Notes: a model not told the origin generated them from the letters alone. Counted from the first letter of the stretch, positions 24,681 to 39,901 are shown. The stretch is DNA of 64,000 bases from an uncultured archaeon (GCA_964342815.1 CAYFHS010000004.1:1-64000), one strand, 5' to 3'. Numbers and translations: made by a program.

Positions 24681-25769
24681 ATGATTTCACTTTCGGGGGT
24701 ATCATCGACGATATATGACGCTGTAATAATTGGGGCGGGACCGGCCGGATCGTCTGCAGCGAAAGTGCTCGAAGACAGTGGATTATCTTATGTACTGGTG
24801 GACAAGAAAAAATTTCCACGGAACAAGCCGTGCGCAGGAGTTCTTTCCCCCAAGATACTGTCGTTATTGGATATTCCTCACGACGTGATCGAAAGACCTC
24901 TCGTGGGTTACCGGGTATTTTCCCCCGCAGGAAGAATTGTGGAATCATCCTTCCCGGAGCATGGTTTTATTGTTCAGAGGACCGAATTCGATACGTTTCT
25001 GGTACGCTCCCTGGCAGCAGAACCGGTCCGGCAAAAGGTAACTCAAATCAAAGACAACGGTGACCATATCGAGATACGAAATGACCAATGGAGCTGCACG
25101 GCAAGATTCGTAATCGGCGCCGATGGGGCCAATTCGGTTGTGAGACGATACTGCGGCATTCACGCAAAACAGGTTGCAGCGGCCGCCCAATGCGTTGTTC
25201 GACTACCTGCAAACGCCATCGATGAACGAGTGGGGGACTGGTTCGAAGTTTATTATACGCTGCACCACGGTTACGGGTGGATCAGCCCCATGAAGGATTT
25301 ATTACGGATCGGAGTTGGTATTGTTACCGGACATCTCATAGGGAATATCAAAGGAGTACTTGAAAAATTTATGGCAAGTTCGCCGGTACGGGAGAAATGG
25401 GAGGGTGGAGAAATTGTTGGAAGAGAAGCGGCTTCCATCCCCATGTCCGGGCCGTTGGATCGTGTGACACGACCGCGAATACTTCTCTGCGGGGATGCCG
25501 GCGGTTTTGTCTATCCGGGGACTGGTGAAGGTATATTCTATGCTGTCAAGACCGGTAGGATCGCGGCCGAGTTAATAAGCCGGCTCTGTCAGGAAGAAGG
25601 TATCGATACGGACCTGCTGGAGAAAACCTACTCGAATGAGCTTGAAAAAAACGGATTATTTGCACTGCGTGACGTGGATTTCACCGAGAAAAATTTATCC
25701 AGCACCGAAAATGCCGAAAAATACGTTCGGCGCCTAGCTCACATCGTCCGGGCTCGCTCCGTCCCTTGA
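24681..25769 (+). CDS. Geranylgeranyl-reductase-family FAD/NAD(P)-dependent oxidoreductase (LipT-like by context)
   Basis: GAGPAGS, FPRNKPCAG, R..FD..L, IGADGANS, GYGWISP, CGDAGG...PGTGEGI. ATG at 24681 follows the dapL stop; the longer ORF-track start overlaps dapL. Confidence 0.85.
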   Translation: MISLSGVSSTIYDAVIIGAGPAGSSAAKVLEDSGLSYVLVDKKKFPRNKPCAGVLSPKILSLLDIPHDVIERPLVGYRVFSPAGRIVESSFPEHGFIVQRTEFDTFLVRSLAAEPVRQKVTQIKDNGDHIEIRNDQWSCTARFVIGADGANSVVRRYCGIHAKQVAAAAQCVVRLPANAIDERVGDWFEVYYTLHHGYGWISPMKDLLRIGVGIVTGHLIGNIKGVLEKFMASSPVREKWEGGEIVGREAASIPMSGPLDRVTRPRILLCGDAGGFVYPGTGEGIFYAVKTGRIAAELISRLCQEEGIDTDLLEKTYSNELEKNGLFALRDVDFTEKNLSSTENAEKYVRRLAHIVRARSVP

Positions 25770-27344
25770 TCTTATTATTCCAATTACTTGGGTCAATAAT
25801 TCAGTATTCAGGTGTGTCTGTCCCTCGAAATCACCCAATTTTGCCTCTTTTGATTTGCCCAGGTCATAGCAGGTCTCGCTGTCGATATCCACTATCACCC
25901 CGGGCACCCCCGCTTCTTCGAAATCCTCTATGTGTTTTACATAGAACGCCTCGCAGCAGCACCCTACAAACGAGCTTACACCTTCGTCCTTCATGTGGCG
26001 AAGAGTGCTTATCAGGTCTTCAAAATTCAATATGGTTATAGGGCTCATATCGTTTACGCCTGCGAGTTCGTAGCCTTCACCTATACTGCATCCCCCGCAT
26101 GGGTCGCAATCCTTCCGGATCCTGTAATCACATCCCACAAGCTTGGAGCAGTAGGGAAGTAGCAGTACCGAAGGCTCGGCAATCTCGGCGAATGGGTACA
26201 GTACCGTAAAAATCCTGTTGACGTTCTCTTGGGAGATTCCCAGCTCAAGATAATCGATCTTTTCGATAGCCTTGTCCAAAGCCTTGAAAAAATCCAGTGG
26301 TTTGACGCCAGGTATCTGGATTTCTCTATTAGCGAAAAAATCATTTATTAAAATTTCTAAATCCCCCTTGACGAGAGACGCGTCCTTCAGCAGTCCCTCA
26401 AGGTCGAAGATTGTTCGTTTGGGATATGCAAAGAAATCTCCGGTGATAAGAGCGGCCTGGATCCGACGGTTTGGGATATCCGCAACCAATGATACACGTA
26501 TTAGCCCCCCGGGCGCCTTGTGGACCGATCTCAGCACCTGTCGGTGTTTCATGGGCCTGCGAATACCGTAGACCCACTTGTCCGATTCATAATATTTTAA
26601 CTTCTCGTTGAGCATTTCTTTTTCCGGCAGACTCAATTCTCTTTTCGTGAATTCAACGTCGAAAACTTCCGAAAACCCTTCCGCGAGAGCCGACTTAATG
26701 TTCTCCATCTCCGGCAGGTAACCCAGTTCCCATTTCAGGCAGGTCACTCTTTCTCGTACGGATTCCAGTTCCTTGTCCTTCAGTTTCTCGATGGGTATCC
26801 TCAGCGATCGCAGCATGGTGTCAACATCGAAATCCGTTAAAAGAGTTCCCTGGAAAAGAAATGCACCACCCTCGAAGGCCCCGCCGGTTCCGGATATCTT
26901 TCTTCCATTCACCTCGATATCGTTCTTGGGACGAAATTCGGCTTTTACGCCGAGTTTTTGGAGTCCCTTCACGGTGCCTCGACACAGTTTCTCGTAAAGC
27001 TCGTCCACCTTTTTCGGAATGCTCGGCTGAGCTCTGGAAGCGATCAGTTCCCAACCGAGCTGCGGTCCGTCCAGGTAAATGGCCCCGCCGCCGGTGATCC
27101 TCCTGTTGATATCGATTTTATTCTCCTTACAGTAATCGATCCGCACCTCCTGCTCGGTGCTCTGATGAAATCCCACGAGGACCGCATTTGGAGAAAATTG
27201 AAGAAATCTCAAGGTATTCGGGATAATATCCCTGTTCCTGCACTTCAGCAGAACGTCATCCAACGCGGAATTTTCGGCAGCGCTTCTCACCCCGGTATCA
27301 AGCAGCGTCCAGGTTTCCATGACATCACTGTTCTCGACCTTCAA
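25734..27344 (-). CDS. Lipoate-protein ligase (LplA catalytic + LplB-like domain) fused to a Cys-rich DUF116-like domain
   Basis: RRITGGGAIY, PKNDI..NGRKISGTG, KAPGGLIRV...ITGDFF, then LLLPYCSKLVGC...CDPCGGCSIG...GCCCEAF...CYDLG. Confidence 0.85.
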   Translation of the reverse strand: MKVENSDVMETWTLLDTGVRSAAENSALDDVLLKCRNRDIIPNTLRFLQFSPNAVLVGFHQSTEQEVRIDYCKENKIDINRRITGGGAIYLDGPQLGWELIASRAQPSIPKKVDELYEKLCRGTVKGLQKLGVKAEFRPKNDIEVNGRKISGTGGAFEGGAFLFQGTLLTDFDVDTMLRSLRIPIEKLKDKELESVRERVTCLKWELGYLPEMENIKSALAEGFSEVFDVEFTKRELSLPEKEMLNEKLKYYESDKWVYGIRRPMKHRQVLRSVHKAPGGLIRVSLVADIPNRRIQAALITGDFFAYPKRTIFDLEGLLKDASLVKGDLEILINDFFANREIQIPGVKPLDFFKALDKAIEKIDYLELGISQENVNRIFTVLYPFAEIAEPSVLLLPYCSKLVGCDYRIRKDCDPCGGCSIGEGYELAGVNDMSPITILNFEDLISTLRHMKDEGVSSFVGCCCEAFYVKHIEDFEEAGVPGVIVDIDSETCYDLGKSKEAKLGDFEGQTHLNTELLTQVIGIIRSRDGASPDDVS

Positions 27345-28387
27345 AGGCTCCGCTCGAAGTCGCCTGAATAATCAAATAATTGCTGTCTGATGGTGTCGAT
27401 ATCGGATTTTTCCGGAAAAAAGGCAAAGTTCCTTATGGGGCGTGACGGGCGCTCGTTGCCGTAAGGCCTGTTACAGGCCACCACCCCGTCATGTCCGGCG
27501 CAACCCGATGTCATGAACGCTTCTCCAGATTGGATCACACTCTCTACTTCACCGGCAAATTCCAATAGTTCACCCTTATCGCTGAACTTCATATCTTCTG
27601 CCCGCTGAATTCCGGAGTTTATAAGGTATCGGGCCAGCTGAACGCGTCGGTACTGGCCGTAGGAAGGCTGTTTCCAGTTCGACATGGAACTCCCCCCTTC
27701 GGGATAGAATGAGAAAAGGTGGGTTTTCGCTCCCCGGTCCTCTCCTTTCTGAATAATATAAATCATCTCTTTTTCAGTCTCCCCAAGGCCCACGATGAGA
27801 TGTATTCCCGCCTTTCCTTTTCCGAAACATTCAGCGGACCATTCCACCACCTTCCAGTAATGATCCCATTTGTGCGGGCCGTTAACCCCCTCACCCCTGA
27901 ACTTGCGGAAAAGCTCCCGGGTAGCGGCGTCCACTGCGATCCCAACCATATCCGCTCCCGCCTCCTTTATCTTCATGACCTTTTCTCTGGAACGTATCAG
28001 CGTGGGTGCGATCAAACCGCTTATCAGGAGATCCGTCTGGTCGCGAAATTTCTTCATGATAGTGCACATGTCCTCATATGCCCTTGGGTGGGTGATCATG
28101 GATATGCAAACCCTTCCCAGGTGTTTGCCGTACTTTTTCGTTCTAGCGAGGATGTCCTCCATGGAAACGATGGGCCAGTCCACTCGAATGAAAGTATTCT
28201 CATCCGGATCCCTGGATTGCGAAAGGCCGCAGTAACCGCAATTTCCCCTGCAGCTGTCATCGTACACCACCAGGAGATTCAATGCATTGAGGCGCTCACC
28301 TCGATTGAAACGCCCGGGGAATATTTTCAATGTCATGGCGGCGGCGGTACTGATCTGCACGTAATCCGGACTTTCTTTGCTACTCAT
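27341..28387 (-). CDS. Radical SAM protein, LipS2-type lipoyl synthase subunit
   Basis: CRGNCGYC SAM-cluster motif; C-terminal FMTSGCAG...ACNRP resembles the LipS2 TxGCPxCNRP motif; flanked by lipoate ligases and a lipoyl carrier. Confidence 0.75.
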   Translation of the reverse strand: MSSKESPDYVQISTAAAMTLKIFPGRFNRGERLNALNLLVVYDDSCRGNCGYCGLSQSRDPDENTFIRVDWPIVSMEDILARTKKYGKHLGRVCISMITHPRAYEDMCTIMKKFRDQTDLLISGLIAPTLIRSREKVMKIKEAGADMVGIAVDAATRELFRKFRGEGVNGPHKWDHYWKVVEWSAECFGKGKAGIHLIVGLGETEKEMIYIIQKGEDRGAKTHLFSFYPEGGSSMSNWKQPSYGQYRRVQLARYLINSGIQRAEDMKFSDKGELLEFAGEVESVIQSGEAFMTSGCAGHDGVVACNRPYGNERPSRPIRNFAFFPEKSDIDTIRQQLFDYSGDFERSL

Positions 28388-39402: not shown

Positions 39403-39472
39403 AATAACTCATTCTCCCGCTAACGATAGAAAATAGATAAAATCCAAGGTTATTTTTGGAAAATAACTGACT

Positions 39473-39901
39473 TTATAATAGCGCTTTCTTTTCCGCGATT
39501 TCTTTCTTCATCCAGCTTTCGAATCCAGGTCCGGTTTTCATTAGATTGCCCAGTTCGTCATCGAGGTCTTCGGGGCTGATCTTCAAAATCCATCCTTCTC
39601 CATAGGTGTCTTCGTTTATCAAACTCGGTTCGTCTTCCACATCCTCGTTAACCTCATCGATCTCTCCACTTATCGGTGAGTAGATCTTTCCGGTCCATTT
39701 TCCGCTGCTGATGGTTCCCAATGGTTTGTTCTGGGAAACTTCATCCTCTTCCTCCAGCGTGATGACACGCTTGATGGTTCCGGCCATTTTCTGGGCAAAA
39801 TCAGTAACGCCTACCACAACAAGGCCATCTTCGACACGAGCCCAGCAATGTTCCTTATGGTAATACAAGTCGTCAGGGAAATTATATTCGTCGATTTTCA
39901 T
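39473..39901 (-). CDS. Second GcvH-like lipoyl-carrier protein (LbpA-like SGKW motif)
   Basis: FPDDLYY...HCWAR, GVTDFAQ, GTISSGKWTGKIYSPISG..EVNE, INEDTYGEGWI. Confidence 0.88.
   Translation of the reverse strand: MKIDEYNFPDDLYYHKEHCWARVEDGLVVVGVTDFAQKMAGTIKRVITLEEEDEVSQNKPLGTISSGKWTGKIYSPISGEIDEVNEDVEDEPSLINEDTYGEGWILKISPEDLDDELGNLMKTGPGFESWMKKEIAEKKALL

Follow-up and report, generated by a model that had tools for sequence, protein, structure and literature searches.

Here we describe a gene cluster in a 64,000-nt stretch of DNA (hereafter the window) from an uncultured archaeon, in which two GcvH-like lipoyl carriers and genes of lipoate ligation and assembly stand together with a flavin/Fe-S oxidoreductase and two UbiA prenyltransferases. 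The window corresponds to contig C4:1-64000 of a Thermoplasmatota metagenome-assembled genome (MAG; G000) of 4.35 Mb in 116 contigs, 88.9% complete. We suggest, with a probability of roughly 55%, that the cluster combines the archaeal Lpl(AB)/LipS/LipT lipoate set with two dedicated carriers, GcvH1 and GcvH2, which in intact relatives would act as the dithiol/disulfide partner of membrane-wired CCG-domain enzymes, and that this module is inactivated here. The inactivation itself is observed directly: the CCG domains are replaced by foreign DNA, the first UbiA gene (UbiA1) is frameshifted, and the module cannot work on a dithiol.

Inactivation of the flavin/Fe-S module

Genes were identified by Pfam and NCBIfam profile searches, with bit scores compared to the family cut-offs (Table 1). 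The damage in the Fe-S gene and in UbiA1 was mapped by tblastn with the intact proteins of a related locus, L009, and the breakpoints by blastn against L025 and L024, the closest relative at the locus (88% GlcD identity). The genes listed in an earlier note on this DNA are all found where it placed them, and its observation is partly confirmed: the genes are real, two of them in broken form, and the note missed a large gene that has been inserted.

Intact orthologues of the GlcF/HdrD-like Fe-S gene encode 421-433 amino acids (aa) with Fer4 and two CCG domains, and both cysteine motifs are invariant in ten orthologues. Of the intact 433-aa L009 protein, only residues 7-153 (37858-37418) and 348-433 (32479-32213) have a match in the window. 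In the N-terminal fragment the homology to orthologues stops at about 37418, and the last ~60 codons are unrelated read-through. In the C-terminal remnant two in-frame stops lie exactly at the expected CCGGGGG site and the motif is lost, as is evidenced from the frame translations. A six-frame search of the window finds no CCG motifs in any real open reading frame (ORF), and of the two CCG domains (CX(n)CCX(n)CXXC) that mark an HdrD/GlcF-type protein both are absent from the window gene. The earlier description of the CCG Fe-S protein as 'split' holds for the gene pieces, which are present, but both CCG domains are destroyed and none survives. The remnant could still yield a 2x[4Fe-4S] protein, not a thiol/disulfide site. 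Since the CCG domains are gone, the flavo-Fe-S enzyme of the window cannot act on a dithiol.

The CCG domains gave way to a foreign segment with breakpoints at 37427 and 32431. The earlier note is silent on the two genes that fill this gap, that of a 1445-aa PKD/NosD-like protein and an 87-aa P-type ATPase fragment. The larger protein opens with a signal/transmembrane (TM) segment and ends in a cytoplasmic tail that bears two zinc ribbons; between them lie a NosD-like beta-helix, several PKD domains and a TM helix. No full-length orthologue of it is found in the same-genus sister species (G077), which has 126 PKD-domain matches; the surface protein thus belongs to a large, fast-changing family. 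The genome has no second copy of the inserted DNA that would point to its origin, nothing convincing in the way of terminal repeats or target duplication is seen at the insertion borders, and the ATPase fragment has weak matches to contigs C21 and C34.

UbiA1 matches the 324-aa L009 orthologue across two frames, owing to a -1 shift near 31530, where a run of A is A7 in the window and A8 in L025. The broken arrangement is also present in other public assemblies; as one of these shares 13 kb with the window at 100% identity, their support is of limited independence. In a relative-rate comparison with L024/L025, the GlcD, UbiA2 and GlcF N-terminal sequences are 0-3% at most below their counterparts in identity to outgroups, with no clear sign yet of relaxed selection. 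This small excess of divergence makes the inactivation look recent.

Table 1. Features of the cluster in the window
Feature	Coordinates	Strand	Basis and remarks
GcvH1, 'H1'-clade lipoyl carrier	39473..39901	-	Pfam GCV_H 120 bits; lipoyl lysine in SSGKW
GlcD-like FAD flavoprotein (VAO/PCMH fold), intact	37849..39402	-	Pfam FAD_binding_4 + FAD-oxidase_C
GlcF/HdrD-like Fe-S gene, N-terminal fragment	37244..37837	-	only Fer4_8 + Fer4_17 match; both 4Fe-4S motifs kept
Foreign segment, 4,995 nt	32432..37426		takes the place of about 630 nt of Fe-S gene (about 210 codons, with both CCG domains)
PKD/NosD-like surface-protein gene, 1445 aa	37229-32892	-	within foreign segment
P-type ATPase fragment, 87 aa	32895-32632	-	within foreign segment
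GlcF/HdrD-like gene, C-terminal remnant (residues 348-433)	32213..32479	-	tblastn, 55% identity to L009
UbiA1 prenyltransferase	31268..32172 (approx.)	-	Pfam UbiA; NDxxDxxxD kept; frame broken
UbiA2 prenyltransferase, intact	30222..31118	-	Pfam UbiA 87 bits; no named subfamily
LplA329 short lipoate-protein ligase	28908..29897	-	Pfam LplA-B_cat; catalytic + LplB-like part; catalytic lysine kept (KKISGN)
GcvH2, divergent 'H2'-clade lipoyl carrier	28380..28865	-	Pfam GCV_H 86.9 bits; lipoyl lysine in ESAKF
LipS2-like radical SAM lipoyl synthase subunit	27341..28387	-	NF053743 LipS2 top hit; CxxxCxxC at residues 46-53
Lpl(AB) ligase + C-terminal DUF116 (nine cysteines)	25734..27344	-	Pfam LplA-B_cat 167 bits, DUF116 37 bits
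GGR-family flavoprotein in LipT position, convergent	24681..25769	+	TIGR02032 214.7 bits vs cut-off 158.8

The locus in related genomes and its flavoprotein

The neighbourhood of carrier, FAD oxidoreductase, CCG protein and UbiA, whose conservation the earlier note had made a test of its proposal, is indeed conserved: in full in L009/G309, L075 and L076, and in part in L010, L026, L077, L024/L025 and L074. In the full loci the genes of cytochrome b and a multihaem cytochrome c, both on the minus strand, stand divergently to GcvH-GlcD-GlcF-UbiA-UbiA-LplA-GcvH. L010 and L077 keep the order of the cytochromes and GcvH through the first UbiA gene, after which the contig ends (L010) or the loci diverge (L077). 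In eight loci GlcD is immediately preceded by the H1 carrier gene (70 nt away in the window), and in five the LplA-H2 pair lies directly downstream of UbiA2.

The intact locus is often found beside HdrC-HdrB-giant HdrA-MvhD. Adjacent HdrCBA/FlpD genes are present in L024, L026, L027 and L074; L026 and L074 run on into HdrC-HdrB-giant HdrA, and L024 has the same three genes divergently upstream. L027 is a supercluster of three GlcD-GlcF pairs, three carriers, OsmC, LipS2, Lpl(AB)-DUF116, LipT, LipS1 and HdrC-HdrB-HdrA-FlpD. In another family, G011 carries HdrA-FlpD and, further on, multihaem cytochrome-cytochrome b-GlcD-GlcF beside three UbiA genes, with the cytochromes in the same orientation; related gene sets occur in G050 and G068. 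This recurrent linkage of H1/H2 and the short ligase to double-CCG proteins and HdrCBA, seen in more than one family, supports the lipoyl-protein as their dithiol/disulfide substrate.

The genome studied here keeps further parts of the locus outside the window. GcvH3, the third of its non-canonical carriers, has 76% identity to GcvH1 and lies at C4:91654-94820 (L016). The genes of a multihaem cytochrome c and a cytochrome b at 91.6-93.9 kb run divergently to it and are orthologous to the pair that flanks the locus in relatives, and an HdrC-HdrB-HdrA-FlpD set lies at C4:101-109 kb. The cytochrome pair with GcvH3 and the Hdr set lie apart on C4, and the ancestral locus is therefore split in this genome. 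One point that the window adds is that the cytochrome pair is part of the ancestral locus.

In the sister species the loss is complete. There, 345 bp stand in place of 9.36 kb of the window (30116-39472), with no remnants of GlcD, GlcF or the UbiA genes, and the flanks are kept: the amino-acid permease, the HHH protein and GcvH1 on one side, and LplA, GcvH2, LipS2, Lpl(AB)-DUF116, GGR, aminotransferase, dapF and lysA on the other. The earlier proposal that lipoylated carriers may work with a flavo-Fe-S enzyme is thus not supported for the window, where the CCG domains are missing; in the sister species the whole GlcDF-UbiA block is deleted.

Most GlcD matches at 39-46% identity in small-genome families occur singly, with no GlcF, and lie outside this system. 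In L011 (9887-12225; 1.8-Mb MAG CP070712) a 641-aa GlcD-like ORF is followed by a 139-aa carboxyl-transferase fragment at the place of GlcF, and this may be another rearranged copy of the locus.

The flavoprotein of the window shares with GlcDEF glycolate oxidase, LDHD and D2HGDH the FAD_binding_4 + FAD-oxidase_C fold and a GlcF-like partner. Its best solved relative is LDHD (171 bits), followed by LctD, glycolate oxidase and alkyl-DHAP synthase. However, it lacks the catalytic/metal-binding His...His and Glu-His of 2-hydroxyacid dehydrogenases, which are replaced by VGTVVDPNT and GFGMLF. These residues are missing throughout the window-type GlcD clade and in all L027 copies, which have a conserved GGRPGGFGLLFSGN motif instead, whereas GlcD of the Hdr operons of family f21 keeps GEHG and both histidines. 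With 207.7 bits against a TIGR00387 cut-off of 567.9 the equivalog score also fails, and we reject the labels 'glycolate oxidase' and 'lactate dehydrogenase'. That the locus flavoprotein is not a lactate or glycolate dehydrogenase is a second point that the window adds.

Such a flavoprotein could also act on a prenylated substrate, with GlcD-like, HdrD-like and the two UbiA proteins making or maintaining a prenylated lipid or quinone and the carriers being neighbours rather than substrates. The strong conservation of the GGRPGGFGLLFSGN motif in a protein without the 2-hydroxyacid catalytic residues fits this, as do alkyl-DHAP synthase among the solved relatives and the GGR-family gene nearby. 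Moreover, GlcDF-type proteins and UbiA recur without carriers in G011, in G050 and on C21 of the genome studied here, where a 903-aa GlcD-like + Fer4+2xCCG fusion precedes a UbiA gene (C21:40906-45812, L096) and is itself preceded by SCO1/SenC, cupredoxin and COX2-like genes. This fusion is an intact paralogue of the broken module. For the UbiA proteins themselves the NCBIfam and Atlas matches are generic ones; with UbiA2 all NCBIfam subfamily models are far under their cut-offs, and unnamed UbiA families are the nearest Atlas clusters. The constant positions of H1 before GlcD and of LplA-H2 after UbiA2 argue against carriers that are mere neighbours, and a complete double CCG motif is a usual mark of thiol/disulfide chemistry; we thus consider a prenyl-lipid role of this kind unlikely.

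Non-canonical carriers and putative lipoate assembly genes

A maximum-likelihood tree of 33 GcvH-like proteins resolves three starred clades, canonical (100/98), H1 (99/99) and H2 (100/100), and the lipoyl lysine is kept in all of them. The canonical clade, with the motif E-S/A-V-K, includes both copies beside gcvT. Members of the H1 clade (SSGKW) adjoin GlcD, multihaem cytochrome c/cytochromes or HdrC, and those of the H2 clade (ESAKF) always follow the short ligase. Against the TIGR00527 cut-off of 115.85 bits, GcvH1 scores 106.3, GcvH2 74.5 and the copy on contig C18 140. GcvH2 is under both GcvH NCBIfam cut-offs, and the C18 copy is the only GcvH equivalog pass in the genome. By both the grouping with gcvT/gcvP-side GcvH and the equivalog score, neither GcvH1 nor GcvH2 is a glycine-cleavage H protein. 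The outcome that the earlier note had named as refuting it, carriers that group with canonical GcvH, is thus not found: they form separate starred clades, and the canonical copy stands beside gcvT on C18.

The same note had reported a lipoyl-carrier system without glycine-cleavage, 2-oxoacid dehydrogenase or sHdr genes. This is true of the window, where GcvT, GcvP, E2, Pyr_redox_dim and CCG profiles give zero matches in C4:1-64000 and profile searches find no Hdr genes. It does not hold for the genome, which has gcvT, gcvH, gcvPA/PB and three Lpd-like (Pyr_redox_dim) flavoproteins. The gcvT gene is part of a 1232-aa SHMT-GcvT fusion ORF without stops (C18:53720-57418; L017:5721-9419) with two matches to the GcvT folate-binding domain, and the canonical gcvH follows directly; gcvPA/PB is on C25. 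Searches of the genome, at its 88.9% completeness, found no E2, LipA or mcrA.

The lipoate part of the cluster appears to fit the described archaeal Lpl(AB)-LipS1/LipS2-LipT pathway (Cao et al. 2018, PMC6067878; Tanabe et al. 2023, PMC10332631; Thermococcus kodakarensis LipS1/S2, PMC9585515), as the earlier note had suggested from LipS2, Lpl(AB)-DUF116 and the LipT-like GGR protein. Common to both are a ligase of the fused Lpl(AB) type, GcvH-like acceptors and a GGR-like flavoprotein convergent to the ligase; by their top hits, a radical SAM protein in the window is LipS2-like and further genes elsewhere in the genome are LipS1-like. The window ligase has both the catalytic and the LplB part of the Lpl(AB) architecture; its LplB region (residues 275-360) scores 51 bits against a cut-off of 65, and it passes no equivalog model. 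The LipS2-like protein scores 230.3 bits against 270 (NF053743), and the LipS1-like genes on C46 and C44, each a top hit, 224 and 200 bits against 230. The GGR ORF opens at 24465, with Met73 at 24681 as the likely start; the gene is convergent beside Lpl(AB)-DUF116 also in L009, L027 and G077 and thus holds the LipT position, scored by a model of the GG-reductase family. The window differs from the described pathway in that LipS1 is outside the cluster, LipS1 and LipS2 score just under their cut-offs, a short ligase paralogue with its own carrier is added, and the ligase has the nine-cysteine DUF116, a term that is not in the main text of PMC10332631.

At C46:12665-17233 (L018) the LipS1-like gene adjoins OsmC, a further GlcF-like CCG protein and a 518-aa neighbour. 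OsmC also lies between carriers in L027 and beside a carrier in L070.

The ligases likewise form three starred clades: the LplA329 type (100/99), Lpl(AB)-DUF116 (100/100) and a type embedded in FlpD-GlcD-GlcF-LplA-HdrC-HdrB-HdrA operons of nine genomes from three families (f12, f19, f21). LplA329 scores 105 bits against a TIGR00545 cut-off of 280, and its catalytic lysine is seen by alignment to 1VQZ. The idea that LplA329 belongs to the same clade as the f21 Hdr-operon ligases is rejected, as the two are separate starred clades.

In Bacillus subtilis GcvH, LipM and LipL form a lipoyl relay with a scaffold and an amidotransferase. A similar division of labour would make GcvH2 the scaffold on which Lpl(AB)-DUF116 and LipS1/S2 build lipoate, and LplA329 the amidotransferase from which the canonical H protein, GcvH1 and GcvH3 receive the lipoyl group. 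In line with it, the genome has two ligase paralogues that belong to separate clades, and H2 lies directly downstream of LplA329 in ten of ten loci, with LipS2 next in 7/10. Nevertheless, LplA329 has lost nothing of the ligase architecture, with LplB-like part and catalytic lysine both in place, and in L026, L075 and L076 the LplA329-H2 pair occurs without LipS2 or Lpl(AB) nearby; we give such a relay a small chance.

The least probable reading is pure housekeeping, with ligases, LipS2 and carriers lipoylating the glycine cleavage H protein and the proximity of GlcD-GlcF-UbiA being an inherited order without function: the genome's only two LplA-family genes are those of the window, it has a glycine cleavage system, the sister species retains ligases, LipS2 and carriers after the loss of GlcDF-UbiA, and L024/L025 lost GcvH1 and kept GlcDF-UbiA, but canonical GcvH is in its own starred clade beside gcvT, H1 and H2 have constant neighbours outside glycine cleavage in several families, and four GcvH paralogues and the ligase embedded in Hdr operons are left unexplained. 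The lipoate assembly set must in any case also serve the canonical H protein.

Proposed mechanism and related systems

We return to lipoyl carriers as partners of CCG enzymes. In the intact form of the locus the lipoyl arm of H1/H2 would be the dithiol/disulfide substrate of the CCG site, a role that CoM-S-S-CoB has with HdrD/HdrB and that is proposed for LbpA with sHdr. Fe-S clusters and FAD would connect this site, with electron flow in either direction, to a membrane chain of cytochrome b, the multihaem cytochrome and perhaps a prenylated carrier that the UbiA proteins produce. The presence of cytochrome b, the multihaem cytochrome and two UbiA genes suggests the membrane link. In the genome studied here the retained carriers and ligases probably serve the glycine cleavage H protein and HdrCBA-type complexes elsewhere (e.g. 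C4:101-109 kb). We infer this scheme of carriers, CCG enzymes and membrane as a whole, including the link to a prenylated membrane carrier, from gene content and gene order.

The earlier note had proposed a different, undescribed redox module. A module unrelated to Hdr systems is not borne out: Hdr-like genes adjoin the locus in relatives and are abundant in the genome, with several HdrCBA/FlpD loci of the HdrC-HdrB-giant HdrA-FlpD type and six CCG-protein loci, the 903-aa fusion on C21 among them. The interpretation in the note as a whole is partly supported. The locus resembles sHdr-LbpA (PMC6067878), and we regard it as a probable variant of the lipoyl-carrier/Hdr-like theme in a decayed state, not a separate kind. 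In both, CCG-domain Fe-S proteins are linked to two dedicated lipoyl carriers outside glycine cleavage, which come with lipoylation genes of their own. Unlike there, the window has no shdrC1B1AHC2B2 cluster, nor any Hdr gene, and its CCG protein is destroyed. In relatives the place of the partners is taken by a GlcD-like flavoprotein together with an HdrD-like protein, and by HdrCBA that includes a giant HdrA and comes with MvhD. The genes of cytochrome b and a multihaem cytochrome stand next to them, and there is no evidence of sulfur oxidation.

In HdrDE of Methanosarcina, HdrD consists of Fer4 and two CCG domains, HdrE is a membrane cytochrome b, and prenylated methanophenazine is the donor. 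The intact loci are alike in an HdrD-like architecture with both CCG cysteine motifs beside cytochrome b and prenyltransferases. They differ in the extra flavoprotein and the extra multihaem cytochrome, and the NCBIfam models are far under their cut-offs. As no mcrA was found, CoM-S-S-CoB is unlikely as the substrate. A GcvH-bound disulfide has been floated, as an explicitly speculative idea, as the Hdr substrate for the Ehe/HdrA2B2C2 cluster of Culexarchaeia (Kohtz et al. 2022, PMC9723716). The likeness lies in a GcvH-bound disulfide as the unknown Hdr substrate of a non-methanogen; that cluster, from another phylum, is a hydrogenase-linked complex without ligase, UbiA or cytochrome context.

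Several points weigh against the proposed partnership. The sister species keeps both carriers without GlcDF-UbiA. Conversely, L024/L025 keep GlcD-GlcF-UbiA-UbiA intact while GcvH1 is a pseudogene (L024:6987-7381, L025:770-1164), stopped at codon 14 and frameshifted across the lysine region, and G011 has the multihaem cytochrome-cytochrome b-GlcD-GlcF-UbiA set with no adjacent carrier. The flavoprotein lacks known catalytic residues. The related genomes are not independent samples, and the A-run shift in UbiA1 could be a real mutation or a homopolymer sequencing error. Finally, the carrier-CCG contact is a presumed one, and complex predictions for the intact HdrD-like protein with the H1 carrier score 0.11 and 0.13 against a mark of 0.32, which is evidence neither way. 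From the reciprocal losses in close relatives it is clear that the parts are not strictly co-dependent, perhaps as paralogues exist.

The disulfide substrate of Hdr-type enzymes outside methanogens is a long-standing open question, and the conserved locus, with its two dedicated carriers, own ligase, HdrD-like protein, cytochromes and prenyltransferases, supplies concrete proteins to test. The different losses, of the CCG domains here, of the whole module in the sister species and of H1 in a third lineage, warn against assuming strict co-dependence and show which parts are dispensable. More tentatively, and as a proposal that we ourselves hold to be doubtful, lipoate on H1/H2 might be the physiological disulfide of HdrD/HdrB-type enzymes in non-methanogenic Thermoplasmatota. 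The conserved locus would then be an undescribed respiratory module, linking the lipoyl couple via a self-made prenylated carrier to extracellular electron transfer, and the genus a natural knock-out series. A literature search for UbiA+GlcD+HdrD, or for multihaem cytochromes with Hdr in Thermoplasmatota, found nothing on this gene combination.

Two further features of the window lie outside the cluster. One is an amino-acid permease gene at 42454-44304 whose product carries a fused PTS EIIA-2 domain, an unusual arrangement in an archaeon. The region 10000-16000 is low in G+C, at 0.33-0.38 compared with about 0.45-0.50 elsewhere.

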